From: Acidobacteriota bacterium
Lineage (GTDB): Bacteria > Acidobacteriota > Terriglobia > JAJPHL01 > JAPKYU01
DNA length: 46,163 nucleotides
Reading direction: 5' to 3'
Assembly: GCA_026394175.1 (NCBI GenBank)
Contig: JAPKYU010000013.1
Location: forward strand, 1 to 46,163
The notes under the pieces are model-generated. The model had not been told where the DNA came from. It ran no database searches and saw only the letters and a list, made by a program, of their open reading frames with translations. Below are positions 2 through 46,010 of this stretch, in pieces (the first letter of the stretch is position 1; each line of letters begins with the position of its first letter). A program made the position numbers and the translations under genes.

Positions 2-823
2 GACGAAGCCGCGCTCACCATCAGTGGCGAGCCGCTCGGCCGCCAGCTCGACTGGTGGGAAAAGTCCGAGCGGCGCGCGGAGCTGCGCGAGTTGCTGGAG
101 AAGCGCGATGGCGTCTCGCCGGATTCCGTCATCATGAGCCCGGAGCAGGCGGCGGCCCGCGGCCTGACCAGCACCGTCAGCTACCTCCGCGGCAACCTGG
201 CCCCAGAGGGCGCAATCGTGAAGAGCACCGCCATCGATCCGGCGGTGGTGGACGCGGACGGCGTTTACCGCAAAGAAGGGCCGGCGCGGGTCTTCACGCG
301 GGAGAAAGACGCGGTGGCGGCCATCAAGAGTACCGGCCCGGAGCGGATCAAGGCGGGCGACGTGGTGGTGTTGATTTGCCGCGGGCCGCAGGGCGCGGGC
401 ATGGAGGAAATTTTCCAGGTCACCTCCGCGCTTTCCAACCTGGATTTCGGCAAGCACGTGGCGGTGCTGACCGACGGACGGTTTTCGGGCGTCTCGACGG
501 GCGCTTGCGTGGGCCACATCGGGCCGGAGGCGCTGGCCGGCGGGTCCATCGGCAAAGTGCGCGACGGCGACCTGATCCGCATCGTCATCGACCGCCGCAA
601 GCTGGAAGGAAGCGTAGACCTGGCGGGGACCGCGGAACATCGCTTGGGACCGGAGGAGGGCGCGCGTGTGCTGGCCGCCCGCCCGCCGCGACCCGACCTT
701 GCTCCCGACCCCGACCTGCCCGACGATACCCGCCTCTGGGCGCTGCTGCAGGGCATGGGCGGCGGCGCCTGGGGCGGCTGCGTCTATGACCTTGATGCAC
801 TGAAAGCGCGCACCGGGGGTTAG
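2..823 (+). CDS. IlvD/Edd-family dehydratase, C-terminal part (5' end lies outside the window)
   Basis: The frame is open from the window edge. It carries [34 protein letters not shown] and a C-terminal WGGCVYD, all typical of dihydroxy-acid/sugar-acid dehydratases. Stop TAG is at 821-823. Confidence 0.85.
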
Positions 824-888
824 CCGCAGATTTCACAGATCGCACAGATCTTCTCGGTCCAATCGGTGCAATCTGCGCGATCTGCGGC
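823..888. repeat. Tandem-unit hairpin (CAGAT-containing units of about 9 nt) filling the gap between two convergent stop codons
   Basis: Arm 1 is GCCGCAGATTTCACAGATCGCACAGATC. Arm 2 is GATCTGCGCGATCTGCGGC. The arms overlap the TAG of the dehydratase and the TAG (888-890, minus strand) of ubiX. Confidence 0.75.
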
Positions 889-1460
889 TAAACTCTTTCC
901 CGCATTCCTTCCCAGCGCTTCACCAGGCCGACATCCAGCCCAAACAAATCCAGGACGCGGCCGACGGAGTGGTTCACGATGTCGTCGATGGATTGCGGGT
1001 GGTTGTAGAAGGCGGGCAGCGGCGGGGCGATGATACCGCCCATCAGCGTCACCGCTTCCATGTTGCGGATGTGGGCCAACGTGAAGGGCGCTTCCCGCAC
1101 CAGCAGCACCAGCTTCCGGCGCTCCTTCAGCGTGACGTCGGCGGCGCGCGCCAGCAGGTTGTCGCACACCCCGGTGGCGATCGAGGCCAGCGTCTTCACC
1201 GAACAGGGCGCGATCACCATGCCGTCAGTATGGAACGAGCCGCTGGAAAGCGCCGCGCCGATATCGCCGACCGGATACCAGTGGTCGGCGAGCTTCCGAA
1301 CATCGTCGGCGGTGTAGGAGGTCTCCCAGGCGATGGTGCGCTCGGCCGCCTCCGATATGATCAGGTGCGTCTCGGCGGCCTGCTCCTGGCGCAACACCTG
1401 AAGCAGGCGGATGCCGTAGATCGCGCCCGTTGAGCCGGAAATGCCCACAATCAGCCGCAT
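888..1460 (-). CDS. ubiX: UbiX-type flavin prenyltransferase
   Basis: MRLIVGISGSTGAIYG at the N-terminus, then MVIAPCSVKTLA and LVLLVREAPF motifs. I chose the ATG at 1458-1460 rather than the longer track ORF (start 1511) because family members begin at the MRL/IVGISG strand. Confidence 0.88.
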   Translation of the reverse strand: MRLIVGISGSTGAIYGIRLLQVLRQEQAAETHLIISEAAERTIAWETSYTADDVRKLADHWYPVGDIGAALSSGSFHTDGMVIAPCSVKTLASIATGVCDNLLARAADVTLKERRKLVLLVREAPFTLAHIRNMEAVTLMGGIIAPPLPAFYNHPQSIDDIVNHSVGRVLDLFGLDVGLVKRWEGMRERV

Positions 1461-1764
1461 GGCACGATTATGTACCATAATGGGAACTGTGTGCGGCGCG
1501 GCGGGCGCCACGGCGGGGCACCAACCGCTACGGCCCCGGTCAGCAACACGCTACCGAACTGGAGAGAGGTCATGCGTCGGCCTGCTTCGCTTTCCGGGGA
1601 CGCTCCCCTGCGCCTCTGGCGCTGACTTCCGGGGCTCCCTGGCGGCCCGACCGTGCCGATGCGCATGGGGCGCTCTCTCCCCCTAGCGGGTCTCGTCGCA
1701 CTCCCCCCGCCGCTGAACCCGCTTCCGTACGGGCGGCGACTGTCGCCCCAGGGCCAGGGATTAT

Positions 1765-1784
1765 TGTGATGCACGCACATCACA
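1765..1784. promoter_or_regulatory. Operator-like inverted repeat TGTGATG-N6-CATCACA abutting the -35 element of the cassette promoter
   Basis: Perfect 7+7 bp inverted repeat read directly from the sequence. It ends 6 nt upstream of TTGACA. Confidence 0.3.
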
Positions 1785-1790
1785 GAACCC

Positions 1791-1819
1791 TTGACAACGC
1801 CGAGAAGCGGTAATATCAA
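1791..1819 (+). promoter_or_regulatory. Putative sigma70-type promoter for the two-gene cassette
   Basis: TTGACA (1791-1796), a 17-nt spacer, then TATCAA (1814-1819). It lies about 50 nt upstream of the GGAGG (1859-1863) and GTG start at 1871. Confidence 0.35.
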
Positions 1820-1870
1820 TAGCATCCAGTTCGCGCCGCTTTCCGTCTCATAGGGTGTGGAGGTTGATGA

Positions 1871-2194
1871 GTGACAGATACCGTTTCGAAAACCGGACAC
1901 GACGAAATTGTCCGCCGAAGCGCACTGCTATTGATGATGCGCGGCTACGAAGTCCGAGCCCGAATCGAAGACTGGTTCGAGCCCCCTGATGTCATTTGCG
2001 GTTACCGGCCGGACATTCTGGCCACGCGTGCCAACAGCTTTTTGATCGTCGAGGTGGAGAAGGGCCCGACCGATTGGCCCAAAATCTGCGCGCTGCGTGC
2101 GTTCAAAAACGGACATGCCGACTACAGACTCGTTGTGATTCCCCTCGCAGCTCAATATGACAACGAGCGCTTGTCAGCCGCCATCGGCGGATGA
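1871..2194 (+). CDS. Small PD-(D/E)xK-like (restriction-endonuclease-fold) protein, 107 aa
   Basis: GTG start lies 7 nt after GGAGG. The protein has an acidic N-terminal helix (HDEIVRR), then YRPDILATRANSFLIVEVEKG. This is a PD ... E-x-E-K arrangement resembling Hjc/YraN-type minimal nucleases. The segment has lower GC than its flanks. Confidence 0.6.
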   Translation: MTDTVSKTGHDEIVRRSALLLMMRGYEVRARIEDWFEPPDVICGYRPDILATRANSFLIVEVEKGPTDWPKICALRAFKNGHADYRLVVIPLAAQYDNERLSAAIGG

Positions 2195-3611
2195 TTGCCG
2201 ACAACGATTCCTGATCGCGGTAGCCAAACTCCTTGGCGAGAACCCGGTCGAAGCCGATCCCTCAGCCTGTGTGCGCATTTGCGAGCGCTGGGCGCTTGAG
2301 GAGACGGTGAATACAATCCTGCGCCCGGGCGGCCTTCTTGGCCTGAACCGGGACGTCTTCAGCCGACTGATGATCCAGTGCGGAAAACGTCCCGTCACAG
2401 AGCACTTTTACCAAGCGTTTTTCGCAAAGGCAGCCACGATAGGGCAGTTTGAAGCGGCTGTCGAGAGGTACCGCGTCAAATGCATGCTCCTGTTCGGCAA
2501 CTTCAAGTATGCGTACCGAACCCTCGCGACGGCCAGTCCTCAAAAGCTCCAAAAACTGCTTGAGCAGACAGAACCGCTGGACCAAACCGAGTTTACGAAG
2601 CGACCGGAATTCAACGAGATCGAACGGATACCACTCGAGGACCGGCACCTGCTCGGCTACATCTCCGGAGGACACCAAGATCTCCTGTTCTGCCTAGACT
2701 TCTTTCAGGTTCTTCAAGGATCTCCCGCCGTCAGCAATCTCGGCGAGCTGGGCCTCCAGAAGCAGGAAAAGCTCAGCAAGGTGCTCCGGGAATATGGCCT
2801 CGCGTTCGATCCTGATCGCATCGCCGAGCCTGCCTACCTGGCGCACGTGACGAGCAGGCTTCAAGGGGCGCTTGACTCCGTAAAAAAGCGTGCATCCGAC
2901 GCCATGGAAATGGGCCAGAGGAACACGCGCAGGTACTTGAGCCTCCCGCATCTCGACGTCTACGTGGCTACGTCGATGGAAAAACCTCAGGATTTTGCCT
3001 CTCAGGACAACTTCATCCGCGAGGTCTTCGAGCACAAGGACATCAAGCCTCTGAGGTTGAGATATTTCGATCCGACTCTGTCGTACGCTGACGACCGCGT
3101 CACCAAGGGCCTAATCGAGGCATTGATGCTCCGTCGTGCGAGGGTAACAATCTACAACGCGGGTGCCAAGGACACTCTCGGTAAGGATTCCGAACTGGCT
3201 GCCACATTAGCGCAGGGCAAACCGGTCATAGTCTACGTTGCGGAGGGTGGCGACGAAGCCGAGAAGGAGATACTAAACAGTCGGGCGAAGAAGTTTTTGG
3301 TTGACCACCCCCTGGGGCTGCAGATCGATGTGAATTCCGGAGTGGCACACGGAATAATCGCCGTTCGCTCCGCGCCACAATGCGCACTGCTTCTCCGCAA
3401 GGTTCTGCTCAACCAACTCGAGCTCAAAATTGCGCACGAGGGAGGGAACTACCGGCTTTGCGAGGCGGACACCGGCAGCGTCATTCGGGTTGTGTCGGAC
3501 GATCCCTTCCTGACCCATGCCTTCTGGACATACTTCCATGATACCCGGCGACGGGAATCGGCGCCCGAGCCCCGTCCGAGTGATCGCTCGGCCGCAGCCG
3601 CAGGCGAGTAG
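2157..3611 (+). CDS. Hypothetical 484-aa protein with an unknown helical N-terminal half and a nucleoside 2-deoxyribosyltransferase-like/TIR-like C-terminal domain
   Basis: The ATG at 2157 overlaps the upstream ORF by 38 nt; an alternative in-frame GTG is at 2271. The C-terminal pattern is LDVYVATSM ... YFDPT ... ARVTIYNAGAKDTLGKDSELAATLAQGKPVIVYV. This matches the beta1 / D-x-G-x-x-x-E / GKPV layout of NDT-like Rossmannoid domains. Confidence 0.6.
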   Translation: MTTSACQPPSADDCRQRFLIAVAKLLGENPVEADPSACVRICERWALEETVNTILRPGGLLGLNRDVFSRLMIQCGKRPVTEHFYQAFFAKAATIGQFEAAVERYRVKCMLLFGNFKYAYRTLATASPQKLQKLLEQTEPLDQTEFTKRPEFNEIERIPLEDRHLLGYISGGHQDLLFCLDFFQVLQGSPAVSNLGELGLQKQEKLSKVLREYGLAFDPDRIAEPAYLAHVTSRLQGALDSVKKRASDAMEMGQRNTRRYLSLPHLDVYVATSMEKPQDFASQDNFIREVFEHKDIKPLRLRYFDPTLSYADDRVTKGLIEALMLRRARVTIYNAGAKDTLGKDSELAATLAQGKPVIVYVAEGGDEAEKEILNSRAKKFLVDHPLGLQIDVNSGVAHGIIAVRSAPQCALLLRKVLLNQLELKIAHEGGNYRLCEADTGSVIRVVSDDPFLTHAFWTYFHDTRRRESAPEPRPSDRSAAAAGE

Positions 3612-3669
3612 CTGAGTAGCAGGGTCGGCCCCCGGCGCTGTGCGCCTCGGTTGGCCCCAGGATCCGACC

Positions 3670-3686
3670 GCACGCGCATCGCGTGC
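3670..3686. terminator. Short GC hairpin GCACGCG-cat-CGCGTGC between the convergent cassette ORF and mnmE
   Basis: 7-bp perfect stem seen in the sequence. There is no U-tract, so terminator function is only inferred from its position. Confidence 0.3.
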
Positions 3687-3713
3687 AGACACTCCCTGCT
3701 CGGCGGGAAACGC

Positions 3714-5147
3714 CTATTTCCCGACACAGAACTGGCTGAAGATTCGATCCAACACATCGTCCACCGTGGTCTGGCCGGTAATCATATCCAGGGGGCGCAG
3801 GGCATTGTACAGATCCAGCAGAAGCATTTCATGGGGCACCGCGGCCTGGACCGCGCCGCGAGCCGTATCCAGCGCGGCCAGGGCCTCGCGCAACAGTTGC
3901 TCGTGCCGGATGTTGGTGAGGAAGGCGGTCTCGCGCGAGCCGTCTAGCCCGGGCAGCACGCTATCGAGAATCGCGCGGCGCAAGGCGGGTATGCCCTCGC
4001 CGGTCAGAGCGGAGACCCGCCAGGCCTCAGTGGCACAGCCTTCCAAGTTGTCCGGCACAGGCTTCCCTGGGAGCGCGGCCGTCCCGGCCGCATCCCCGGC
4101 GGGCGAGACGCCCGCGCTCCCAGGAAAGCCTGTGCCACTCAGATCCACCTTGTTCCAGACGAGGAGCGTCGGCCCTGCCTTGCGGCTCTGCTCGATCAGT
4201 TCCTGGTCGGCAGGAAGCAAACCGGCCGCGGCGTCCAGCACCACCAGCGTCAGGTCGGAATCGGCCAGGGCTTCGAACGACTTCTGAACGCCGAGCGACT
4301 CAGCTTCATCGCGCGCCTCGCGAATGCCGGCCGTATCCACCAGCCGCAGCGGAATGCCTTCCAGGTTGATGGTTTCGCTGACCAGGTCGCGGGTGGTGCC
4401 GGGCGCGGCGGTGACGATAGCGCGCTCGCGCTCCACCAGCCGGTTAAACAGGCTGGATTTTCCGACATTGGGGCGGCCGACAATCGCCAGGCTCAAGCCG
4501 GCCTGCACCACACGGCCGTAACGGAAGCTGGAGGCAAAGGCGGCCAGCGGCGCGCGCACGCCTTCGATGCTCTCGAGGATGCGCGCGTCGGGCAGGACCG
4601 AAACGTCGTCCTCGGCGAAATCGATACCCGCTTCCAGCAGCGCGATCAGGTCGACGAGTTGCTTCTTGATCGGCGCCAGCTTGCGGGCCACCGCGCCGGC
4701 CACCTGGCGGGCCGCCACCCGGGCCTGGTAGACGGTCTGCGCCTCGACCAGGTCGCGGACGGCTTCGGCCTGCGCCAGGTCCAGGCGGCCGTTCAGGAAG
4801 GCGCGCAGGGTGAATTCGCCGGGCTCGGCCAGCCGCGCGCCCAGCGCCAGGGCGCGCTCCACCACGAAGCGCAGAACCACCGGCGAGCCGTGGCAGCTCA
4901 CTTCAACTACGTCTTCAGCAGTGTAGGAGTGGGGCGCGCGGAACCAGGTGGCCACGACTTCATCGACCACCTCGCCGGCCTCATCCACCAGTTCGCCCAG
5001 GCGGGCGCGCCACGGCTCCGCATCTGCCGTGGTCCGCACCAGCGCGCCAGCGATGGCGACCGCCTGGCTCCCGGACAAGCGGACGACACCGATGCCGCCC
5101 CGCCCCGGCGGCGTGGAGATGGCCACAATGGTGTCGTCGGTGTGCAT
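3714..5147 (-). CDS. mnmE: tRNA uridine-5-carboxymethylaminomethyl modification GTPase MnmE
   Basis: N-terminal [23 protein letters not shown]-domain motifs [18 protein letters not shown] and NKVD. C-terminal CVGK. Confidence 0.95.
4054..4136. repeat. 83-bp near-perfect palindrome embedded in the mnmE coding sequence
   Basis: Arm GGCACAGGCTTCCCTGGGAGCGCGG (4054-4078) pairs with CCGCGCTCCCAGGAAAGCCTGTGCC (4112-4136). That is 25 nt with one mismatch and a 33-nt spacer. Confidence 0.85.
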
Positions 5148-5148
5148 C

Positions 5149-5215
5149 GGCTGTGGGCTGCAGACTGACAGCCGTGCGAGGCGCTCCTGCAGCCCACAGT
5201 CTACAGCCTACAGCC
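5149..5215. repeat. GCTGTRG-family heptamer hairpin between jag (stop) and mnmE (start)
   Basis: GGCTGTGGGCTGCAG ... CTGCAGCCCACAGTCTACAGCCTACAGCC. Confidence 0.8.
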
Positions 5216-5217
5216 TC

Positions 5218-5760
5218 TCATCGAGAGGGGGCGTGGGGCTTGGAGGACTGGGGACCGGCGGAGGCTTGCGCCGGGTGGATCACCACGCGCCGCTGCGGCC
5301 CGACGCCCTCGCTTTCGGTGCGCACGCCCGCTTCGCCGCGCAGCGCCATGTGGATGATGCGGCGCTCGCGGGAAGTCATGGGATTGAAGCGGTGGGCGAC
5401 GCCGGTGCGGCGGACGCGGTCGGCGGCCGCCTCCGCGGCCAGTTGCAGCTCCTCGACGCGCATCATGCGGTAGTCGTGGCAGTCGAACAGCACGCGCTCC
5501 AGCCGCTCCCCAACCCCGGCCGCCTCCAGCACCGTGTGTTCCAGCGCGGTGAGCAACTCGCCCTTGTTCTGCAGCAGCAGGTCGGCATCCGCGCCGTCGA
5601 AGTTCACGATCAGGTCCGGGTTCTCGAACTCGCGGTCCAGCGCGGCGCTGGCGCGCTGGATCTCGAAGGTCAGGTTGAAACCGGCCAGGCGCAGAATGTC
5701 CTTCAGCAGCGGCTCGATTCGGGCCGCCAGTACGTCCGGGTCAAAAGTTCTTTCCGCCAT
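5218..5760 (-). CDS. jag: Jag/KhpB-type KH + R3H RNA-binding protein
   Basis: R3H segment NPMTSRERRIIHMAL. It sits in the conserved position between yidC and mnmE. Confidence 0.85.
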   Translation of the reverse strand: MAERTFDPDVLAARIEPLLKDILRLAGFNLTFEIQRASAALDREFENPDLIVNFDGADADLLLQNKGELLTALEHTVLEAAGVGERLERVLFDCHDYRMMRVEELQLAAEAAADRVRRTGVAHRFNPMTSRERRIIHMALRGEAGVRTESEGVGPQRRVVIHPAQASAGPQSSKPHAPSR

Positions 5761-5780
5761 GTCCTTCTCGGCTCTGTAGC

Positions 5781-5805
5781 GGCGGTCCCGCTTGGCGGGA
5801 CCGCC
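5781..5805. repeat. GC-rich hairpin GGCGGTCCCGC-ttg-GCGGGACCGCC between yidC and jag
   Basis: 11-bp perfect stem read from the sequence. Confidence 0.7.
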
Positions 5806-5850
5806 ATGTGGGTCGGCCGCGGCTTGACGCGATCCGCGCGCAATGTTCGG

Positions 5851-7614
5851 CTACTTCGCGGCCAGGGCCGGCTTGCGCGGTGGCGCGGCCCCCAACCCCG
5901 CCCTGTTAATGTACCACTGCTGCGCCATGCCCACGAGGTTGCCGACCAGCCAGTAAAGCACCAGCCCGCTGGAGACGTTCATAAACATGAAGCCGAAGAT
6001 CAGGGGCATGAACATGAACATCTTCTGCTGGGCCGGGTCGGTAGCGGTCTGCGGCGTCATCTTCTGCAGCAGGAACATGGTCAGCGTCATGACGATCGGC
6101 AGGATGTAGTAGGGATCCTTGGACGAGAGATCCCGTATCCACCCGAACCACGGCGCGTGACGCATTTCAATGGAAATCGCCAGAACCTTGTAAAACGCAT
6201 ACAGGAACGGAATCTGGAGCAGCATCGGGAAGCACCCGCCCACCGGGTTGACCCCGTGCCTCTTGTAGAGGTCCATGATCTCCTTGTTCTGATCCTGCTT
6301 CTTGGGGTCGTTGAACTTGAACTTCTTGTATTTCTCCTGAACGGCTTTGATCTGCGGAGCAAGCTGCTGCATCTTCAGCGCCGATTTCATGCTTTTCAGC
6401 TTCAGCGGGAACAGCAGGAGGTTAATCACGATGGTGATGATGACGATGGCCCAGCCGTAGTTGCTGACCACGCGGGCGTGAATCCACTTGAGCGCCAGGA
6501 GCAGCGGCTTGGCGATGAATGAGAACCAGCCGAAATCCAGCAGATCGGCCAGGCTCAGCACGGGCTGGCCCTGGCGGGCGCGCTCGGCGGCTCCCGGCTC
6601 GGGATAGACGTGGCTGAGCACGTCCATGGCCTTGGGGCCGACAAAGACGCGCAATCCGTTGGAGGCCTGCCCGCCCGCGCCCACGCCGATCAGCCCGATG
6701 GGGCTCTGCGCCCCTTCCGGCTGGTACTCGGAACGAAAAGCCGCAGCCGCCGCAACGGTGCCCGGACCGGGCGTTTCCGCCGGGGGCATGAAGACGACGG
6801 CAAAAAACAGGTCCTCGACACCGGCATACAGGAACGGCCCGGAGTATTTCGTGTCTGCCTTGATGTTCTTGTATTCGTGCCGCTCGATCCCGGCTGCGGT
6901 GGCGGTCACCACTGTGGCCGTCTGGTAGGCATCGGCCACGGTCTGGTCGCCAAAACCGCCACGCCAGGCGAGCTGATGAGGCACCGGGGCTCCCGCGTTG
7001 CTCACCTCCGAGAACACCTGGGCGACGTAGCTGTTATGTTCGAAGCGGAACTCCTTGCGCGCCGCCAGCGTCCTGTCGCTGTATTCGAAAACCACCTTTG
7101 CCGGCGCTTGCGATCCGCCGGCCTGCACCCGAAACAGCGCATTGGCCAGCTTGTTCCGCAACTCCTCGTCGTCCACCCAGATCAGAAAGGGGTAGCCGAG
7201 CTGGGCGTCCGGGCCGCGATTGACCAGCTCCAGGGCACGGCCGTGGGCATCCTTGTAACCCTTCAAGGTCCAGCTCTTGACGACCGCGCCGCGGTTGGAA
7301 AAGACCACGCGGTACAGATCGTTCTCGAGCGCGGTTTCGCTTTCCTCGCTGGCCTGCTTGACGGCGGCGGCCAGAGGAGCCCGCTTCCCTGCGGCTTTCT
7401 TAGGCGCTTGCGCGGGGGCCTTGGCACCGCCATCCGTGCCGGGCGAGGAAGCAGGCGCCGAAGGCCTGGCTTGCGTCGCAGCCTGCCTGGCAGGCGCCGG
7501 AGGCGGGAAGAAGCGCTGCTGGACGGGCATCCATAGCATCAGCACCAGCGCGGAGAGCGCGAAAGCCAGCAACACCCGCAACTCCATGGGAAAATCTTTC
7601 TTTGAAAAAGCCAT
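5851..7614 (-). CDS. yidC: Membrane protein insertase YidC
   Basis: Large periplasmic domain followed by the conserved core (GWAIVIITIVINLLLFPL, GCFPMLLQIPFLYAFY). An alternative ATG is at 7587. Confidence 0.95.
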   Translation of the reverse strand: MAFSKKDFPMELRVLLAFALSALVLMLWMPVQQRFFPPPAPARQAATQARPSAPASSPGTDGGAKAPAQAPKKAAGKRAPLAAAVKQASEESETALENDLYRVVFSNRGAVVKSWTLKGYKDAHGRALELVNRGPDAQLGYPFLIWVDDEELRNKLANALFRVQAGGSQAPAKVVFEYSDRTLAARKEFRFEHNSYVAQVFSEVSNAGAPVPHQLAWRGGFGDQTVADAYQTATVVTATAAGIERHEYKNIKADTKYSGPFLYAGVEDLFFAVVFMPPAETPGPGTVAAAAAFRSEYQPEGAQSPIGLIGVGAGGQASNGLRVFVGPKAMDVLSHVYPEPGAAERARQGQPVLSLADLLDFGWFSFIAKPLLLALKWIHARVVSNYGWAIVIITIVINLLLFPLKLKSMKSALKMQQLAPQIKAVQEKYKKFKFNDPKKQDQNKEIMDLYKRHGVNPVGGCFPMLLQIPFLYAFYKVLAISIEMRHAPWFGWIRDLSSKDPYYILPIVMTLTMFLLQKMTPQTATDPAQQKMFMFMPLIFGFMFMNVSSGLVLYWLVGNLVGMAQQWYINRAGLGAAPPRKPALAAK

Positions 7615-7684
7615 GGACTCTCTACTTGAATAATCCTCTTAAAACGGCCCCTGAATCAACCGAAAGGCTACAGGCCATCAAACC

Positions 7685-7745
7685 AATTGCGGATTACGGA
7701 TTTCAACCGCTGGTGCTTGAAATCCGCAATCCGAGATCCGAAATT
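7685..7745. repeat. Heptamer hairpin (NCGGATT / AATCCGN units) between yidD (stop) and yidC (start)
   Basis: AATTGCGGATTACGGATTTCAA ... TTGAAATCCGCAATCCGAGATCCGAAATT. Arm 2 overlaps the yidD stop codon. Confidence 0.8.
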
Positions 7746-7953
7746 ACTCGACGGGGTCGTAGCCGCCGCCCCCCAGCGGCCGGCAGCGCCAGAGCCGCTT
7801 CATCGCCATCCAAGCGCCGCGGACCGCGCCATAGCGCTGGATGGCCTCCCGGGCATATTCCGAGCAGCTCGGATAGAACCGGCAGGCCGAAGGCAGCACG
7901 GGCGAAAGGACGCGCTTGTAAAACGCCAGCAAAGCCAGCAGCAGCGCGCGCAT
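7744..7953 (-). CDS. yidD: Membrane protein insertion efficiency factor YidD
   Basis: [32 protein letters not shown] signature. The ATG at 7951-7953 overlaps the rnpA stop (TGATG). The longer track ORF was rejected. Confidence 0.85.
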
Positions 7954-8447
7954 CACGGCGCCGGTCCCTGGCGGCGGGGCCGCCGGGCCGCCACCCAGCG
8001 CCACAGCTCTCGAACCTGCTGTTCCAGGGAAGGGAAAGCGGCTTCCAGAACAGCGCGCCGTGGATTGAAAACGATATGCCACCCAGGTTCCAGCTCCGGC
8101 AGGCTCAACCGGACTGCTTCCCGTAAACGCCGCTTGATGCGATTGCGCTGGGTGGCCTTGCCCAGCGCCCGCGGAGTGGTGAAACCAACACTGCTGCCGG
8201 CTGCATCAGTCGGCAAAACAAACGCCGAGAACAGCGGGCAACTGTATCTCCGGCCGGCCGAATAGACGCGCTCAAACTGGCTGCGCCGCAGCAGGCGAAC
8301 CGAGCGCGGCCAAGGCCTGGGCGGCGGCTGGGGGCCGTTGGCCGGCGGCCGACCGCCGCACCGATCCCGGCCGGGCCCCGCAGTCCCCTCAGACGGTGAG
8401 GCGCGTTCTTCCCTTCGCCCGCCGGGCAGCGAGTACTCTTCGGCCAC
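7953..8447 (-). CDS. rnpA: RNase P protein component (start uncertain)
   Basis: [12 protein letters not shown] and the [15 protein letters not shown] (RNR) motif. The only ATG/GTG/TTG upstream of the conserved core is the GTG at 8447, which lies inside rpmH. Confidence 0.8.
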
Positions 8448-8526: not shown

Positions 8527-8574
8527 GTGTTCTGGCTCCTATATACGCAAGATGCGCCGCGGCGCAAAAGAACA

Positions 8575-36468: not shown

Positions 36469-36471
36469 TCA

Positions 36472-37507: not shown

Positions 37508-37540
37508 TCCGCGAAGATTCCCGCGGCGTCCCGCCGCCAT

Positions 37541-37616
37541 GATGTAGCGCCGGCGTCCCGCCGGTAATCGTCCTCCGGTCGCCGATCGGTTACCGGCGAG
37601 ACGCCGGCGCTACATC
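37541..37616. repeat. Long palindrome (27-nt arms, not heptameric)
   Basis: GATGTAGCGCCGGCGTCCCGCCGGTAA pairs with TTACCGGCGAGACGCCGGCGCTACATC. There is one mismatch and a 22-nt spacer. Confidence 0.85.
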
Positions 37617-37658
37617 CGGGGCGCGAGACGCGCAGGGGCCTGTGCTAACCTTTCAACC

Positions 37659-38879
37659 ATGGGGGGTGCGGGAACCAGTGCCGAATTCGACCTGCCCGCC
37701 GCCCTTTCCTTGCTGCCGGCCGCGCTCGACTTCACTGCGGATTTCGATTTCACCAGCGTCCCGGAAGGCCCGGGCGTGTTTCTGCTGGAGACCGGGGGCG
37801 AGTCGTTCCTGGGCAAAAGCGCCTCGCTGCGGCGGCGGCTGGCGCGGCTGCTGGCGGAATGCGGAGTGCGGGACGCCGAGCGCGGAACACCACCATCCGT
37901 GTCGCCCACTCTGCATTCCGCACTACGCACTCCGCGCCCCCGGCTGAATCTGCGGGCTGCGACCCGCCGGATCCACTACCGCGCCACCGGCTCGGCGTTT
38001 GAGACCACACTGCTGCTGTACCAGGCCATGCGGGCGCTTTATCCGCAGCGTTACCGCGAGCTGCTTCGTTTGCGGCATCCGCCGCTGCTGAAATTAAATC
38101 TCGACAACCCCTGGCCGCGGAGCTATGTGACGCGGCGGCTGGGACGCAAGCGGGCGCTTTACTACGGCCCCTTCCCCTCCCGCGCGGCCGCCGAGAAATT
38201 CGCGCCCCAGATCCTCGACCTGTTCCTGGTGCGGCGCTGCCGCGAGGAGATTCGCCCCGATCCGGCGCACCCCGGCTGCATTTACGGGGAGATGAACATG
38301 TGCCTGCGGCCGTGCCAGAACGCAGCCACTTCCGAGCAGTACCAGGAGGAGGCCGGGCGGCTGGCATCTTTCCTCACCACGGCGGGAGCTTCGCTGCTGA
38401 AGGAGCTGGAGACCGAGCGCGACCGGGCCTCCGAGGCCCTCGATTTCGAGGAGGCGGCGCGGCTGCACAAGCGCATCGAAAAGGTGCGCGAGGCGCTCAA
38501 GCACCGGCCCGACCTGGCCGTGGACCTGGAGCGGTTGCACGGCCTGGTGGTCCAGCGCGCCGCCGCGGAGCAGAGCGCCGCGCCGGCTGCGCCCGCGGTC
38601 ATGCTGTTTCCCGTGTGGCGGGGCTACCTGCTGCCGGCCATCCGGCTGGCGCTGGAAGTGATCGACGGCAAGCCGGTCTCGCTCGACGCCCGGTTGCGGG
38701 AGGCCCTTTCGGGCCTTGGTTTCCGCGGCGGCACGTCGCGCGTCCGCGCCGAGCACATGGCCCTGCTGGCGCGCTGGTACTACCGCGGCGCCCGCCAGGG
38801 CGAGTTCGTTCCCTTCGAAAGCTATGAGCGCATTCCCTTCCGCAAGGTGGTGGGAGCCATCAGCCGTGTCTTGCGCTGA
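37659..38879 (+). CDS. UvrC N-terminal-half homolog (GIY-YIG-like + Cys-rich + UVR domain) lacking the UvrC C-terminal nuclease/HhH half
   Basis: PGVFLL...FLGKSASLRRRL (GIY-YIG-like). SAFETTLLLYQAMRALYPQRY. YYGPFPS. The Cys cluster C-x12-C-x7-C-x3-C (RRCREEIRPDPAHPGCIYGEMNMCLRPC). UVR helix DFEEAARLHKRIEKV. Confidence 0.7.
   Translation: MGGAGTSAEFDLPAALSLLPAALDFTADFDFTSVPEGPGVFLLETGGESFLGKSASLRRRLARLLAECGVRDAERGTPPSVSPTLHSALRTPRPRLNLRAATRRIHYRATGSAFETTLLLYQAMRALYPQRYRELLRLRHPPLLKLNLDNPWPRSYVTRRLGRKRALYYGPFPSRAAAEKFAPQILDLFLVRRCREEIRPDPAHPGCIYGEMNMCLRPCQNAATSEQYQEEAGRLASFLTTAGASLLKELETERDRASEALDFEEAARLHKRIEKVREALKHRPDLAVDLERLHGLVVQRAAAEQSAAPAAPAVMLFPVWRGYLLPAIRLALEVIDGKPVSLDARLREALSGLGFRGGTSRVRAEHMALLARWYYRGARQGEFVPFESYERIPFRKVVGAISRVLR
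37853..37939. repeat. GCGGAGT-family heptamer inverted repeat located inside the UvrC-like CDS
   Basis: GGCGGAATGCGGAGTGCGGG ... CTGCATTCCGCACTACGCACTCCGCGCCC. It is translated as ...AECGVRDAERGTPPSVSPTLHSALRTPR... Confidence 0.75.
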
Positions 38880-39948: not shown

Positions 39949-40605
39949 ATGACGGACCTGAAGGGACTCTATGATGCGATCCTGAACGGCGACGCGAAAG
40001 CCGCCGCCGCGTTGACCGCCCAGGCGCTGGCGGAGGAGCGCGACCCGCTGGAGATGGTCAACCAGTACATGTCGCCGGCCATGGACGAAGTGGGCCGGCG
40101 CTTCGAAGCGGAAGAATATTTCGTGCCCGAGTTGCTGTTGTCGGCGCGGGCCATGAAAGCCGCGCTGGCGCTGGTCCGGCCGCTGCTGGCCGCCCGCGGC
40201 GCGAAGCCCGCCGGGCGCGTGGCGATTGGCACAGTGAAAGGCGACCTGCACGACATCGGCAAGAACCTGGTAGCCTCGCTGCTGGAAGGCGGCGGGTTCC
40301 AGATCCAGGACCTGGGCGCCGATGTCAGTGCGGAGAAGTTTGTCCAGGCGGCTCGCGACGGCGATGCCCAGATCATTGCCCTCTCGGCGCTGTTGACGGT
40401 CACCATGCGCGGGATGAAAACCACCATCGACGCGCTGAAGGAAGCCGGCGTGCGCGACCGCGTCAAAGTGATCGTGGGTGGGGCTCCCATCACCCAGAGA
40501 TACGCCGACGAGATCGGCGCCGACGGATATGCGGAAAACGCCAGCGCGGCGGTGGCCCTGACCCGCAGGCTGGTTGGCGCCGGCCCGCAGGCCGTCCTGC
40601 AGTAA
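39949..40605 (+). CDS. Cobalamin (B12)-binding corrinoid protein (B12-binding_2 cap + Rossmann domain)
   Basis: The DxHxxG motif (GDLHDIGKN), SALLT and VIVGGAP blocks. AGGAGG RBS at 39938-39943. Confidence 0.85.
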
Positions 40606-40632
40606 GTGCGGAGTGCGGAGTGTGGGGTGGGG
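40606..40632. repeat. Single arm of the GCGGAGT heptamer family immediately after the corrinoid protein stop codon
   Basis: GTGCGGAGTGCGGAGTGTGGGGTGGGG. I see no convincing local partner arm. Confidence 0.7.
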
Positions 40633-40665
40633 AATAAACGCTTTCTCAGCACTCAGCTCTTTCGA

Positions 40666-41202: not shown

Positions 41203-41239
41203 ACGCAGAGTTTAAAGTTTCAAGTTCAAAGTTCCGGAT

Positions 41240-42396: not shown

Positions 42397-42409
42397 ACGC
42401 ACCTCCGAA

Positions 42410-42506
42410 AAGTTAAGAGTTATGAGTTAAGAGTTAAGAGTTGGCCAACCCGCCCGGGATGACTGCAGTTCCCAATCCATAACTCTTAACTCTTAACTCT
42501 TAATTC
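42410..42506. repeat. Heptamer hairpin (GAGTTAA units) between the NfeD and SPFH genes, overlapping the NfeD 3' end
   Basis: AAGTTAAGAGTTATGAGTTAAGAGTTAAGAGTTGG ... CCATAACTCTTAACTCTTAACTCTTAATTC. Confidence 0.85.
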
Positions 42507-43874
42507 TTCGCCCTCGGGCTCGACCTTCAGAAGCAGGCCCTCGACGGCCCGCACGCGCACCCGGGCGCCGCGCAGCACCGGGGTGCTGCTGACGGCATTC
42601 CAGATTTCGCCGTGGACAAAGATCTTGCCTTCCGGCGCCAGGTCGGTCTGCGCCGTCCCGATTTGGTCCACCAGGCCCGCTTCGCCCGTGGTGACCTTGC
42701 TCTTCCAGGCCTGAATGGCCAGGCGCAGCAGTAACGTGGTGATCACGCCGAGCGGAATGGCTACCGAGAGTGCGGTCGTCAGTTTCACCTTCATCTCCGG
42801 AACGGGCGCGTTGATAAGGATCAGAGCGCCGATCACCATGGCCGCGATGCCGCCGGCGGCCAGCACGCCATGGGTCATGAATTTGGCCTCCAGAACGAAG
42901 AAAACGAACGCCAGGACGATCAGCAGCGCACCCGTCCAGTTGATGGGCAACAGGGACAGGGCGAACATGCCGAGCACCAGCATGATGGCCCCGGCCACCC
43001 CGGGCACGATCAGACCCGGATGCGTGAATTCAATATACAGGCCCAGCGCGCCCAGCGCCAGCAGGATGAAGGCGATGTTGGGATCGATGATGTGGCGCAG
43101 GAACTCGTACCGGGCACTGCCGGTGTAATCGTCCAACCGCGCGTTGGCCAGGCGCAGGGTCACCTGGCGGCCGTCGAAGCGCCGGATGGTCTTGCCGTCC
43201 ATCTTGGCCAGCAGGTCGTGCGGCGAATCGGCGACTACATCGATCAGGCGCTCCTTGAGGGCCTCGGTTTCGGTGAAGGACTTGCTTTCCAGGATGCCCT
43301 TCTGGGCCAGGTCGGGGTTGCGGCCGCGCTTGCCGGCGATAGAGCGGACGTAGGCGGCGGCATCCTGCTCGACCTTCTGCTTCATCACCTCGTCCATCTT
43401 CTCGCCCAGCAACACCGGGTGCGCGGCGCCGGTGTTGGTTCCGGGGGCCATGGAGGCCACGTCGCAGGAGAGCAGGATCACGAAGCCGGCGGAGGCCGCG
43501 CGGCTGCCGCTGGGCCCCACCCAGGCCATCACCGGCACCGGGGAGGCCAGGATCTTCTCCACGATGGCGCGCATGGAGGAGTCCAGCCCGCCCGGCGTGC
43601 TCAGCCGCAGCAGCACCGCTTCGGCATGCTGGGCCGCCGCTTTGTTCAACCCCTGCTCGACGTATTCGGCGGTCAGCGGGTGGACCATGCCGTCCAGGTC
43701 GATTTCCAGCACCAGCGGCTGCCGGGCAGCCTCGGCGGCCGGGGAGACAGCGCCGCGGTTGACGCCCGGGGCCAGCAAGACCAGCAGCGCCAGGGCGGCC
43801 ACCGCCGCCGGGAGTCCGCCACTCCGCACTCCGCACTCCGCACTCCGCATTTTGTTCATCCGAAATCTATTCAT
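42486..43874 (-). CDS. NfeD-family membrane-bound ClpP-class serine protease
   Basis: ClpP-like N-terminal domain (LSTPGGLDSSMRAI, GSRAASAGFVIL). Multi-TM middle region. C-terminal NfeD OB-fold (GKIFVHGEIWNAVS). It is paired with the SPFH gene downstream. Confidence 0.85.
   Translation of the reverse strand: MNRFRMNKMRSAECGVRSGGLPAAVAALALLVLLAPGVNRGAVSPAAEAARQPLVLEIDLDGMVHPLTAEYVEQGLNKAAAQHAEAVLLRLSTPGGLDSSMRAIVEKILASPVPVMAWVGPSGSRAASAGFVILLSCDVASMAPGTNTGAAHPVLLGEKMDEVMKQKVEQDAAAYVRSIAGKRGRNPDLAQKGILESKSFTETEALKERLIDVVADSPHDLLAKMDGKTIRRFDGRQVTLRLANARLDDYTGSARYEFLRHIIDPNIAFILLALGALGLYIEFTHPGLIVPGVAGAIMLVLGMFALSLLPINWTGALLIVLAFVFFVLEAKFMTHGVLAAGGIAAMVIGALILINAPVPEMKVKLTTALSVAIPLGVITTLLLRLAIQAWKSKVTTGEAGLVDQIGTAQTDLAPEGKIFVHGEIWNAVSSTPVLRGARVRVRAVEGLLLKVEPEGEELRVKS
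43814..43850. repeat. (ACTCCGC)x4 tandem heptamer array, a single arm of the GCGGAGT family, inside the 5' end of the NfeD ORF
   Basis: Four exact ACTCCGC units at 43821-43848, preceded by one degenerate unit. On the minus strand it encodes MRSAECGVRSGG. Confidence 0.85.
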
Positions 43875-45475
43875 GGCGAACGCATCTGAATGGTCTGCAG
43901 GACCGAGCGGGCGGCCACGTTGCCCGGCTCCATCGACAGCACCTGCTGCGCGTGTCGCTGCGCCTCCTGCAGCTTATTCTGCTCCAGATAGACCTTGGCG
44001 AGCAACAGGTGGGCGTCCACGGGCTTGGGGGCGGCCAGCGCCAGCTCCGCCTCGCGGATGGCCTCCTCTTTCTGCCCGCCGCGCTCGTAGAGCCGGGCCA
44101 GCAGCAGGTGGGTGTCGGAGGCCTGGGGATCCAGCGTCGCAGCCTCTTTCAATTCGTTGAGGGCTTCGGCGTCGTTCTGCTCGCGGAACAGGTCGCGGCC
44201 GCGCTCCAGGTGCACCTGCGCATGCTGGGTCCTGGGCAGGCGCGAAAGCTTCTCCTCGTCCAGGGTCTGCAGCGTCAGTTGCAACTGGCGGAAACTGGGC
44301 TCGTCGTAATTGCGCTTGATGCGCTCCAGGCCCTCCAGGGCGCGGTCATCCAGGTTGGTGAAGCGGAGGCCGGCAGGATTGCGGCTGAGCAGCTCGCGCT
44401 CGCGCGCCGCGTCGGCCGTGTTGCCGGCGCGCTCCAGCGACTTCAGCAGCACGGCCCGCGCTTCGGCGTCGTTGGGGCGGCCGGCCAGCACCAGCCGCAG
44501 GCGCCGCGCGGCCGACGCGTATTGGCCGTTCCGGTAATACCAGTAGCCGACGTTGAACTGGTAATCGGCGTCGGCCGGATCGGCGTCCGCCGCCTTGCGG
44601 AAGTTGTCCAGCGCCGCCCGGCGGTTCAGCCGCGACTGCGCGGCCCCCAGGTTGTTGTACACCTCGTTCAGCGGCAGCCGCGCGGCCACCGCCTGCAACG
44701 CGGTCTCCGCCTTGTCGTAGTCTTCCCGCCGGAAATAGCAGATGCCCAGCAGGAAGTTGGCCTCCAGGTAGTTGCTCTCGTCGTGCTTCAGCTTCGAGAG
44801 CCAGAGAATGGCCGTGGCATAGTCGCGGCTCTGAAAATAGATTTTGCCAAGCTGCAGGGCGGCCCGGCTGAGGCCCGGCTCAAGCCGCACGGCCTCGCGG
44901 AAATACTTGATCTGCTGGGGGCGCGAAGAGGCCGAGAGGCCGCGGATGTAATTCTCCCAGGCGTCGAGGCGGAGGCGCGGCGGCGCGGGCGACAGGGTGA
45001 TGCCCGGCAACTGTCCGGCCAGCGCCTCGGCCACCCGGTCCTGGATGTTCAGCAACTCCGGCAGCGGGGCCGCTGCCTCGGCCCTGCCGGCCAGCTTGGG
45101 CGGGTGCATTTCCAGAACGTCGGCGCTGGCGCGGAGCTGGTTGGTGGCGGGCTCCAGCGTGAACTGGCCGATGATCACGCAATCGGCGTCGGTGGTTTCG
45201 GCCAGCTTCAGAATGGTGGCGCGGCTCAGGATGCCGGCCGGGGGAATGCCCAGCGCGTCGAAGGCCGCCGCGCGCTCCTCCCGGGTGACCACGTAGGTCT
45301 GCGGCCCGGTGAAGCGGTCCGACAGCGCTTCCACCAAGCTCTCGCCGATCCATTCCAGGCTGGCATTGCGCGTCTGGTTTTCGAACGGGAGAATCAGCAC
45401 GGTGCCGCCGGCCGCCGCTGCCGCAAGCAGGAGGGGCAACACCCCCGCCAGGCAGAGCCTCCGCACAAGTCTCAT
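43871..45475 (-). CDS. Tetratricopeptide-repeat protein with a signal peptide
   Basis: Signal peptide plus LILPFEN...EWIGESL N-domain, then multiple TPR units. The stop overlaps the NfeD start (ATGA). I chose the ATG at 45473-45475. Confidence 0.8.
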   Translation of the reverse strand: MRLVRRLCLAGVLPLLLAAAAAGGTVLILPFENQTRNASLEWIGESLVEALSDRFTGPQTYVVTREERAAAFDALGIPPAGILSRATILKLAETTDADCVIIGQFTLEPATNQLRASADVLEMHPPKLAGRAEAAAPLPELLNIQDRVAEALAGQLPGITLSPAPPRLRLDAWENYIRGLSASSRPQQIKYFREAVRLEPGLSRAALQLGKIYFQSRDYATAILWLSKLKHDESNYLEANFLLGICYFRREDYDKAETALQAVAARLPLNEVYNNLGAAQSRLNRRAALDNFRKAADADPADADYQFNVGYWYYRNGQYASAARRLRLVLAGRPNDAEARAVLLKSLERAGNTADAARERELLSRNPAGLRFTNLDDRALEGLERIKRNYDEPSFRQLQLTLQTLDEEKLSRLPRTQHAQVHLERGRDLFREQNDAEALNELKEAATLDPQASDTHLLLARLYERGGQKEEAIREAELALAAPKPVDAHLLLAKVYLEQNKLQEAQRHAQQVLSMEPGNVAARSVLQTIQMRSP

Positions 45476-45514
45476 CAAAGGCTGTCTCCCCCGTTATTAT
45501 AGCCCCATCGCCAG

Positions 45515-45574
45515 CCGGAAGGCGGAAGGCAGTAGGCAGAAAGCAGAAGGCGGAAGGCGGAAAGCCGAAAGCGG
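45515..45574. repeat. Left arm of the GGCRGAA-family heptamer inverted repeat flanking the four-helix-bundle gene
   Basis: CCGGAAGGCGGAAGGCAGTAGGCAGAAAGCAGAAGGCGGAAGGCGGAAAGCCGAAAGCGG. It ends 1 nt before the stop codon of the enclosed gene. Confidence 0.85.
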
Positions 45575-45970
45575 CTATGCGGGCGTGAACTTCTTGGCCT
45601 CCATCATCATCTTACCGAGCATCCTGCCCAACTGTTCATAATCCGTCGTCAATTGCGCGTGAGCGCCCTCCGATAAATACGCGCAGTCAAAGGCGAAGTC
45701 CAGCCACACCTTTGTTTCAGTTGCCTCGGCGTCGGCATCCGCCATCTTCGAAGAAAACATACTCGGATATTGGCGTTTCCGAAAACCCTCCGCGATGTTG
45801 GCCGCAACACTGCGCGATGAGCGGCGAACCTGGTCGGTCAGGGAGAAGCGCTCATCCTTCGGGAACTTCTTTGAGGCATCGAATATCTGCATGGCCAGCT
45901 TGTAAGCCAACTGATAAGCCCACAGATCGCGATGCCCCCTCAGCGCTGCAGGTTGGTCCGTGTTTTCCAC
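45575..45970 (-). CDS. Four-helix-bundle protein (23S rRNA intervening-sequence protein / Avd-like family)
   Basis: HRDLWAYQLAYKLAMQIF, FSLTDQVRRSSRSVAANIAEG and a C-terminal helix pattern typical of the family. GC is lower than in the flanks. The start is GTG. Confidence 0.8.
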   Translation of the reverse strand: MENTDQPAALRGHRDLWAYQLAYKLAMQIFDASKKFPKDERFSLTDQVRRSSRSVAANIAEGFRKRQYPSMFSSKMADADAEATETKVWLDFAFDCAYLSEGAHAQLTTDYEQLGRMLGKMMMEAKKFTPA

Positions 45971-46010
45971 TTTCTGCCTTCTGCTTTCTGCTTTCCGCCT
46001 TCTGCCTACC
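45967..46010. repeat. Right arm of the GGCRGAA-family inverted repeat
   Basis: CCACTTTCTGCCTTCTGCTTTCTGCTTTCCGCCTTCTGCCTACC, the reverse complement of the left-arm units. It overlaps the enclosed gene's start and the neighbouring gene's stop. Confidence 0.85.

Follow-up and report, generated by a model that had tools for sequence, protein, structure and literature searches.

What are the hairpins that recur along contig JAPKYU010000013.1, each arm of which is a tandem array of a short, mostly 7-nt unit, and how did they come to occupy so many gene ends? The contig, whose whole 46,163-nt stretch is referred to here as the window, has a G+C content of 65% and about 40 genes, among them the origin neighbourhood of the chromosome (mnmE, jag/R3H, yidC and yidD on the minus strand, dnaA and dnaN on the plus strand); its DnaN and YidC homologues assign it to the Acidobacteriota, within a set of Terriglobia-like metagenome-assembled genomes. 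The record of heptanucleotide repeats goes back to 1990 in cyanobacteria and to 2015 in Xanthomonas, and we know of no accepted origin or function for them. The answer that we favour, and hold to be fairly probable, is that the loci constitute a lineage-restricted family of dispersed heptanucleotide palindromes resembling repetitive extragenic palindromes (REPs) and MITEs (transposable elements of the miniature inverted-repeat type), and that they are the form lacking an open reading frame (ORF) of the elements known from 23S rRNA as intervening sequences (IVSs), with stems that probably act as RNase III or 3′-end structures. The connection to IVSs is made by one pair of arrays in the window that encloses a gene of the PF05635 family.

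The periodicity itself is real. At a relaxed threshold the window contains 31 period-7 tandem arrays, compared with an average of 1.6 (at most 3) over 20 shuffles that preserve dinucleotides, a kind of check that the initial annotation of the window had itself proposed for the genome; Tandem Repeats Finder and a periodicity scan of our own detected only one to three arrays each at periods of 8–10. The elements counted comprise 13 hairpins with heptamer arms, two with units of 9–10 nt, four solo arrays, and one pair of arrays lying 390 nt apart (Table 1). A single architecture had been claimed for at least 19 loci; it is found at about 16, and the four solo arrays lack it. Two of these, at 40606 and 43814, had been listed as hairpins and prove to be direct arrays with no convincing partner, and the other two, which begin at 18395 and 41209, were missing from the list. 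The loci with longer CAGAT-containing units (823 and 32740) are indeed hairpins, built from units of 9–10 nt and not from heptamers, and the arrays at 45515/45967 are inverted as described, forming no small hairpin but the widely spaced pair, whose enclosed PF05635 gene had been overlooked. Inverted-repeat detection and RNA folding confirm the hairpins, with z-scores of −3.2 to −9.6 and at most 1 in 200 shuffles folding equally well. Their stems are roughly 17–45 bp long and perfect or near-perfect, and a stem of this kind tolerates slippage because any register still pairs.

One unit, GCTGTRG, recurs at six unrelated loci of the window and another, GCGGAGT, at three; in all, ORF-less heptamer elements mark gene ends at about one per 2.5 kb. 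The density of arrays is 0.35/kb in the window as against 0.012/kb in 1.37 Mb of sequence from 80 other Acidobacteriota, and the trait is therefore confined to the window's lineage. The elements have the features of heptanucleotide simple sequence repeat palindromes, namely at least two to three tandem 7-nt copies in excess over other periods, convergent intergenic pairing, and a position that is kept between relatives while length varies. They also have those of REPs and REP doublets forming hairpins (REPINs), being numerous short imperfect palindromes that are extragenic and lie at gene 3′ ends and within operons. Rfam yields no family at gathering score for the window; with matches admitted up to E ≤ 0.5, the hairpins hit only models of eukaryotic miRNA precursors, below threshold, and these were taken as spurious. 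CRISPR was ruled out, the units being contiguous and 7 nt long, with arrays in inverted pairs and no unique spacers between repeats.

Comparison with relatives, designated like all other scanned contigs by L-numbers, reveals how the elements change. A genome scan based on DnaN returned only distant Acidobacteriota (51–62% identity) without the elements, which served as a negative control and not for orthology; close relatives were found through YidC and NfeD homologues. These are L172 (99% NfeD identity), L081 (91% YidC identity), L082 and L173, both from one sample (71% YidC and 85% NfeD identity), and L083, L174, and L175 (66–80% identity). At 91–99% identity, the same unit occupies the same site, and at five sites one arm, or each of the two, has a different number of units, four in the comparison with L081 and one in that with L172. 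For example, the upstream arm around the PF05635 gene has six units in the window and nine in L172, the downstream arm being identical. Between dnaN and orf101, L081 carries four units against two in the window, and L082 and L083 carry no array. In the jag–mnmE spacer, L081 has the same GCTGTRG unit at another copy number, L082 has an AAGTTTA hairpin, and L083 has a 39-nt spacer devoid of arrays. At about 71–85% identity, sites are still filled, by a different unit. The stop codon of the TPR gene is followed by (GCGGAGT)4 in the window and by (CGGATTG)5 in L174; between NfeD and Band7, the 100-nt GAGTTAA hairpin of the window corresponds to a solo (CAGGTCY)5 array in L173 and to spacers of 28–31 nt in L174 and L175. 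The most distant relatives have array-free spacers of 8–39 nt. The dominant unit likewise depends on the genome, being GCTGTRG in the window and L081 and GGGACYT/CAGGTCY in L082 and L173, and the GCGGAGT family reappears at a non-orthologous site in L175. These statements rely on recurrence within genomes and on specific cross-genome cases, which replaced a one-mismatch grouping of units across all fetched loci that was too permissive for meaningful statistics.

Since point mutation cannot turn one array into another, and since one copy is inserted in frame within a gene, the elements arrive as pre-formed units. The comparisons show a dispersed, lineage-specific family of heptamer-array palindromes that is inserted at gene ends, undergoes fast copy-number change, and is replaced over time. 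Among the roles originally suggested, a self-propagating repeat class fits best, as it accommodates a unit at unrelated loci, insertions relative to relatives with short spacers, the replacement of units, and the in-frame copy.

Placement with respect to genes is equally regular. In all 13 hairpins and in the pair enclosing the PF05635 gene, the 5′ arm overlaps the upstream stop codon or starts 0–7 nt from it, which bears out the proposal that arms coincide with stop codons. Our own gene map puts elements at about 5 of the 8 convergent junctions, at about 11 of the 25 co-directional ones, and at 1 of the 6 divergent ones, the last at 32741–32819; the initial annotation had likewise noted one divergent region. 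One element lies inside a gene. Several unit families hold a stop codon, and arrays of NAACTGA, AGTGACN, and GAGTTAA present one to every reading frame: 7 not being divisible by 3, a run of three stop-bearing units can close them all. ORFs end within arms because their units carry stop codons; the last approximately seven codons and the TAA stop of NfeD, for instance, are the sequence of the GAGTTAA 5′ arm at 42406–42510. The GCGGAGT unit is stop-free in every frame, and its copy at 37854–37935 encodes an in-frame insertion of about 24 amino acids in the UvrC-like protein, absent from most homologues. A copy with a stop-free unit can hence persist in frame within a gene. Several elements had been thought to be translated; this applies fully to the UvrC-like copy only, and at 21845 and 42508 just the last few codons enter the array. 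In practice, such elements burden gene calls with in-frame insertions and with spurious extensions at the N- and C-termini.

The same placement bears on transcription termination. As had been noted, no U-tract is seen after the stems on direct reading, and copies lie between co-oriented genes of one operon, yidD-yidC-jag-mnmE, which holds the hairpins 5149–5216 and 7686–7744. The elements differ from intrinsic (Rho-independent) terminators in that their stems lack a T-run and in that copies occur within an operon and within an ORF. In window positions 1–20000, terminator-like sites of the canonical kind are no more frequent than expected (15 found, 14.9 expected). The initial annotation had also considered terminators independent of a U-tract, an option weakened by the misfit between a plain terminator and copies inside this operon or inside coding sequence.

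The enclosed gene provides the link to IVSs. The cassette, which consists of the PF05635 ORF and its inverted arrays, lies between co-oriented PD40 and TPR genes, and in the predicted fold of its 516-nt transcript the arrays pair in one long stem across about 400 nt (minimum free energy (MFE) structure, z −4.7). With 23S rRNA IVSs that encode S23p it has in common the PF05635/TIGR02436 ORF (in the window present in the cassette only), complementary termini, a long stem around the ORF, and heptamers before it. It does not share their location in helix 9, 25, or 45, being situated between the PD40 and TPR genes. The PF05635 family is very large, with 3,412 proteins matched at E ≤ 1e-5, and the deposited structures of the ORF's solved relatives, 2GSC (Xanthomonas campestris XCC0516) and 2RLD, comprise five chains apiece. 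To our knowledge, no function has been established for PF05635/S23p outside diversity-generating retroelements. An exact look-up of the protein of the cassette returned no record, and PADLOC gave no hit for PF05635. In L172 (3232–3375), GCG stands in place of the GTG start codon of the window's ORF (45970), and the called gene begins about 26 codons further on; the ORF may be in decay in L172, as proposed for the S23p ORF of Coxiella.

Inverted heptamer arrays accompany this gene far beyond the window. A metagenome scan yielded 80 loci homologous to the PF05635 ORF, with 43–67% G+C, of which 74 were testable; inverted period-7 arms flank 48 of them, in comparison with none of 237 equal-size intervals displaced in the same contigs. 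The unit at these cassettes always belongs to the GGCAGAA/GGCAGTA/GGCGGAA family, with the purine-rich arm upstream on the sense strand. The contigs, chosen for their PF05635 gene, carry 0.25 further arrays/kb, of diverse units and often as hairpins, and no PF05635 homologue occurs in the 1.37 Mb of array-poor Acidobacteriota sequence. A tblastn search of 72,556 plasmids gave 24 hits, 22 of them cyanobacterial. Of the seven cyanobacterial plasmid copies examined, six lie between inverted arms of short period (mostly 7 nt), built from other purine-rich units: (GCAGGGG)n upstream and (CCCCTGC)n downstream in Nostoc, (GGGAAAA)n and (TTTTCCC)n in Geminocystis. In Oscillatoria (L164), the flanking arrays are direct and not inverted. 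The PF05635 copy of Azospirillum lipoferum lies inside a 23S rRNA gene, which makes it an IVS of the classical kind, with arms of (GGACRGA)n and its complement. In the literature, no paper was found that ties PF05635 to heptamer arrays in general, the Coxiella IVS paper doing so for one element, and the general association, together with multi-cargo cassettes in operons, appears undescribed in the literature searched. Two details may be added on arrays next to such genes. In L157, about 19 and about 40 copies of the pyrimidine unit of the cassette (2815–2975 and 3397–3676) flank the PF05635 gene. In the window itself, the hairpin at 26396–26443 is directly followed by GGGGGGAAAGGGGGGAAA (26446–26463), two 9-nt purine units upstream of a GNAT gene, which resemble the purine-rich leaders before cyanobacterial PF05635 genes.

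PF05635 is not the sole cargo. In L151 (1877–4243), pgk and tpiA are separated by an insertion of about 2.3 kb with a toxin-antitoxin pair (DUF433/DUF5615), a gene of the PF05635 family, and an unknown ORF of 234 residues; a purine (GGCAGWA) array precedes each cargo gene and a single pyrimidine array closes the set, a layout reminiscent of integron cassettes. L101 has an insertion between galT and galK. In L095 (1669–2940), an ORF of 317 residues, which matches PDC-S11, a candidate defence family of PADLOC (E = 1e-61), lies between purine and pyrimidine arrays of the GGCAGWA family and adjoins a PF05635 cassette. L111 contains a decayed second copy with its own array, and L123 an ORF-less hairpin of the cassette's own unit between two other genes.

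Arrays were also followed in stretches from a viral collection. GGCAGWA arrays are present there as 195 solo arrays, 33 short hairpins, and 25 long-range pairs, a census of the latter consisting mostly of successive intergenic hairpins and not of true cassettes; some viral contigs have a hairpin in nearly every intergenic spacer. An ORF ends within 60 nt upstream of the array on the purine-rich strand in 52% of cases, compared with 27% for the opposite strand and 21% for random positions. In one contig from IMG/VR (L298, 3600–7300), (CYACAGC)n arrays stand at the 5′ ends of successive small genes, apparently translated in signal-peptide-like N-termini (...ATAYSLQPTAC...).

From these observations, the favoured reading of the loci as dispersed, ORF-less relatives of IVSs can be spelled out. 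Each arm is a short array of one heptanucleotide, of the same kind as the short tandemly repeated repetitive (STRR) sequences of cyanobacteria and the GGGAATC arrays of Xanthomonas. Copies were inserted at or just past stop codons, mainly in co-directional and convergent spacers, and their copy number would subsequently change by replication slippage, each arm independently. The recurrence of one architecture around the S23p/PF05635 ORF, both in the window and its homologues and in a classical 23S IVS, suggests that the hairpins are the ORF-less form of IVS-type elements. Once transcribed, the stems would serve as punctuation of the transcript, either as RNase III sites or as blocks to 3′ exonucleases, by analogy with the stems of 23S IVSs. 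Perfect or nearly perfect transcript stems of about 17–45 bp are a known type of RNase III substrate, and together with the IVS precedent this makes processing or 3′-end protection the most likely effect. The transcribed stems thus probably function as RNase III or 3′-end structures and not as classical terminators.

A number of results weigh against this reading. On the sense strand of 46 independent cassettes, mismatches of the G·U type do not significantly outnumber those of the A·C type (73 versus 66), and among nine hairpins of the window the sense strand folds better in six and the antisense strand in three. The idea that the two arms are mirror copies was rejected, their copy numbers being uncorrelated (rho 0.04), and the match of an arm with its own partner exceeds that with the arms of other loci by just a modest margin (0.66 versus 0.57, p = 7e-4). 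Selection on pairing at the RNA level is not detectable; what is conserved is an array of a unit on one side and an array of its complement on the other. No filled-versus-empty polymorphism of recent origin was caught between the closest relatives, no target-site duplications were noticed on reading the element flanks, where no systematic test was made, no parent insertion sequence (IS) came to light, and no transposase or RAYT (REP-associated tyrosine transposase) family gave a Pfam match among the submitted ORFs of the window, which amounts to 46 kb of the genome. The expectation that PF05635 adjoins every array also failed: a PF05635-like ORF occurs in 1 of 100 (GGCAGWA)3 stretches and in 0 of 26 (GCTGTRG)3 stretches of the viral collection, in a search by hidden Markov model that recovered 80 of 80 positive controls. 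Arrays often stand alone, and they do not require PF05635 in cis. The gene is thus nearly always with arrays and arrays are rarely with the gene, a relation that matches the REP/RAYT pattern and would fit equally well if the gene were just one cargo among several.

A broader proposition takes inverted heptamer arrays for the termini of mobile gene cassettes of a widespread and hitherto unrecognised class, with the 23S IVS as its best-known site and PF05635, encoded by the element, as the array-recognising factor. It would comprise insertion at stop codons inside operons (pgk–tpiA, galT–galK, PD40–TPR) and into rRNA helices, a cargo of Avd-like PF05635 proteins, toxin-antitoxin pairs, and defence candidates, and ORF-less hairpins and solo arrays, present by the thousand in Acidobacteriota, STRR cyanobacteria, Xanthomonas, and phage-like contigs, as non-autonomous derivatives. 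As a joint claim this is tentative and on the whole doubtful. A different view would derive each hairpin in place by slippage and inverted duplication and explain its maintenance by selection as a U-tract-independent terminator, with no dispersal at all. The coincidence of 5′ arms with stop codons, the strong, G+C-rich stems, the presence of an element at most convergent junctions, the lack of an excess of canonical U-tract terminators, and the variation in copy number among close relatives are all in keeping with it; it accounts poorly for copies placed where termination would have polar effects (between genes of the conserved yidD-yidC-jag-mnmE operon, and in the NfeD–Band7 spacer), for the copy in frame inside a gene, for one unit at six unrelated loci and at other sites in other genomes, and for wholesale replacement of the unit at a single site (GCTGTRG versus AAGTTTA), which is beyond point mutation. 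We consider a local origin unlikely.

A shade less credible still is the view that the heptamers are iterated DNA or RNA sites for a multimeric factor, possibly a pentameric PF05635 or a ribosome-associated protein, the hairpin being secondary. Binding is purely hypothetical here. This view would accommodate the solo arrays (195 of the GGCAGWA type in viral stretches, besides the four of the window), the loosely maintained pairing implied by uncorrelated copy numbers, the absence of a G·U/A·C asymmetry, the tendency of the purine-rich strand to be sense, the purine array before each cargo gene of L151, and the five chains of both PDB relatives. The flanking unit also varies by PF05635 clade, a co-variation equally explained by co-inheritance, while 99 of 100 viral-contig array stretches lack a nearby PF05635 gene and most elements of the window are clearly palindromic, with near-perfect stems. 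It is very improbable that the arrays act through non-B DNA, be it cruciform extrusion or the G-quadruplex (G4) structures proposed for Xanthomonas and Nostoc heptamers. G4 formation has been shown for GGGAATC repeats (Rehm et al., PMC4692102), and in the window GCTGTGG runs give G3-N4 tracts, with four GGG tracts on the complementary strand of 14167–14200. Most units, however, lack G3 tracts (CAGTTNT, GAGTTAA, AGTGACN, CGGATTN, and GCGGAGT), and GCTGTRG arrays mix TAG with TGG units, so that few contain four G3 tracts. Chance or an assembly artefact is hardly conceivable, given the excess over shuffles and the same elements at the same sites in independently assembled contigs of other samples (L081, L172). 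The reading as a dispersed palindrome family related to IVSs is accordingly retained. In this way the window ties heptanucleotide repeats to S23p/PF05635, with the ORF situated within an inverted heptamer-array stem across phyla and in a genuine rRNA IVS, and makes three matters testable, RNase III cutting of mRNA stems, binding of arrays by PF05635, and the segregation of filled and empty sites.

Table 1. Heptamer arrays, hairpins, and the PF05635 cassette of the window, with gene context (strand in the third column where assigned; z, z-score of folding)
Feature	Position	Strand	Context	Remarks
Hairpin, 9–10-nt CAGAT-containing units	820–891		Between convergent ilvD/edd-like (+) and flavoprotein (−) genes	Both stop codons in arms; MFE −36 kcal/mol, z −5.8
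GCTGTRG hairpin	5149–5216		Fills jag/R3H–mnmE spacer, both genes (−)	
CGGATTN hairpin	7686–7744		Right after yidD stop codon; 70 nt upstream of yidC	
GCTGTRG hairpin	11661–11716		Between convergent dnaN (+) and orf101 (−)	Arms abut both TAG stops
GCTGTRG hairpin	14082–14201		Starts at DUF4097 gene stop codon; upstream of TPR gene	63-nt loop
CAGTTNT/NAACTGA hairpin	17670–17766		Between orf107 and thiE	z −6.9; 3′ arm is TAACTGA-type unit
Solo CCTGACA array	18395–18416	+	Between convergent thiE and AI-2E transporter genes	
AGTGACN hairpin	21845–21938		ACE-like (peptidase M2) ORF ends at TGA within 5′ arm	z −9.6
GCTGTRG hairpin	22164–22256		3′ end of Usp gene (−)	
GCTGTRG hairpin	26396–26443		3 nt past acetyl-CoA hydrolase gene stop codon	19-bp perfect stem; z −8.1
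GTCCCAA/CTTGGAC hairpin	29763–29815		Between VWA gene and recA (−)	
Hairpin, 10-nt ACGCAGATRA unit	32741–32819		Between M28 peptidase and YfhO-like genes	Sole element in divergent region; z −8.9
GCTGTRG hairpin	36471–36529		2 nt past S58 peptidase stop; upstream of aldo-keto reductase gene	
GCGGAGT hairpin	37854–37935	+	Within UvrC-like ORF (37659–38879)	
Solo GCGGAGT array	40605–40633	+	Between convergent B12-binding and phosphoribosyltransferase genes	
Solo AAGTTTA-type array	41209–41234	−	Ends 10 nt upstream of phosphoribosyltransferase start codon	
GAGTTAA hairpin	42406–42510		Between NfeD and Band7	
Solo (GCGGAGT)4 array	43820–43849	−	Just after TPR gene stop codon; upstream of conserved part of NfeD	
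Cassette downstream arm, pyrimidine-rich	45516–45574	−		(TTCTGCC/TTCCGCC)8 on sense strand
PF05635/TIGR02436 ORF, 131 codons	45575–45970	−		23S rRNA intervening-sequence protein, S23p; four-helix-bundle, bAvd-like
Cassette upstream arm, purine-rich	45964–46011	−	Begins at PD40 gene TAG stop	(GGCAGAA/GGCGGAA)6 on sense strand

Further palindromes occur near the heptamer elements. The mnmE gene (3714–5147, minus strand) contains at 4054–4136 an 83-nt G+C-rich palindrome without heptamer periodicity, coincident with a 28-residue in-frame insertion in MnmE that is common to the window and L081 and absent in L082 and L083; the same spot of MnmE in L082 carries a (GACCTGG)5 heptamer array (L082 10617–10651). 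A palindrome with 45-nt arms at 37526–37631 separates the aldo-keto reductase gene from the UvrC-like gene and is missing at the corresponding place in L172. The motifs GGCGTCCCGCC / GGCGAGACGCC are common to it and to the palindrome of mnmE, and this suggests that the genome contains a second family of palindromic repeats, one lacking periodicity. The yidC–jag spacer holds an ordinary G+C-rich hairpin in the window (GGCGGTCCCGC...GCGGGACCGCC, 5790–5815) and a heptamer hairpin, (CCAGGTY)n / (GGGACTT)n, in L082 (8919–8998). At the site of the cassette upstream of TPR–NfeD, L173 (2948–3303) has arms of (GCGGCYT)n / (AAGYCGC)n and no PF05635 ORF; the interior of about 330 nt consists of roughly eight small G+C-rich hairpins, and a similar cluster follows mnmE in L083. 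Elsewhere in the window, positions 1550–3700 have a G+C content of about 60%, compared with 65–69% in the flanks, and include a 484-codon ORF without Pfam match (2157–3611); synteny with L081–L083 ends here, just past mnmE, and the region may be an acquired segment. No tRNA, tmRNA, or rRNA was found in the window.

The statement of the initial annotation that the elements match no known family was too strong, since the Xanthomonas GGGAATC arrays, the cyanobacterial STRR and TAACTGA repeats, and the heptamers of the Coxiella IVS are close analogues. STRR heptamers of cyanobacteria were reportedly described by Mazel et al. in 1990. TAACTGA repeats are present in Beggiatoaceae, Cyanobacteria, and Bacteroidetes, in 169 direct sets and one inverted set (MacGregor 2015, PMC4679880). 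The elements of the window resemble both in comprising several tandem heptamer families that are intergenic and often lie just upstream of start codons. The NAACTGA arm at 17726–17758, and that in L082, is the TAACTGA unit of Beggiatoaceae and cyanobacteria, and the GTCCCAA unit resembles STRR1 (CCCCAGT). STRR and TAACTGA repeats are mainly direct, whereas copies in the window are mostly palindromic. In Xanthomonas, GGGAATC units are arranged in tandem, usually in about four copies, and 70–75 convergent pairs per genome form inverted repeats; they are intergenic, mostly between co-directional or convergent ORFs and rarely between divergent ones (Rehm et al. 2015, PMC4692102). Tandem 7-nt units, inverted pairs, and intergenic placement are thus shared with the window. 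Despite this likeness, the Xanthomonas system employs a single G-rich, G4-forming unit, in contrast to the many units per genome seen here, most of which are not G4-capable; it concerns a phylum other than Acidobacteriota, and the work on it makes no link to PF05635.

REPs, REPINs, and bacterial interspersed mosaic elements (BIMEs) are likewise short imperfect palindromes with very many copies in species-specific families, at gene 3′ ends and inside operons, and a RAYT gene flanked by REPs is comparable to the gene of the window flanked by inverted repeat copies. The GCTGTAG unit contains the GTAG tetranucleotide typical of one REP superfamily, which the other units of the window lack. However, the arms of REPs have no internal periodicity, no RAYT gene was recognised among the window ORFs submitted to Pfam, and the flanked gene encodes a four-helix-bundle protein instead of a transposase. 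Rickettsia palindromic elements (RPEs) are palindromic repeats able to insert in frame in protein-coding genes. The copy in the UvrC-like gene (37854–37935) and the non-heptamer palindrome in mnmE are similar to RPEs in this respect, but RPEs are unrelated in sequence and have no heptamer periodicity, and only 1 of about 20 heptamer elements of the window is intragenic. A close parallel to the cassette is offered by 23S rRNA IVSs. The Coxiella IVS has tandem GACAGAT heptamers of strain-variable copy number before its S23p ORF and a 28-bp terminal stem, in which RNase III cleavage has been mapped at the first repeat (Warrier et al. 2016, PMC4990558). Such cleavage has been shown for rRNA IVSs only. 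While 23S IVSs reside in rRNA, the cassette of the window lies between protein-coding genes, and most elements around it are devoid of an ORF. IVSs with an S23p ORF, as in Coxiella and Leptospira, nevertheless agree with the cassette in the family of the encoded protein, in the long stem formed by their complementary termini, and in the tandem heptamers that precede the ORF.

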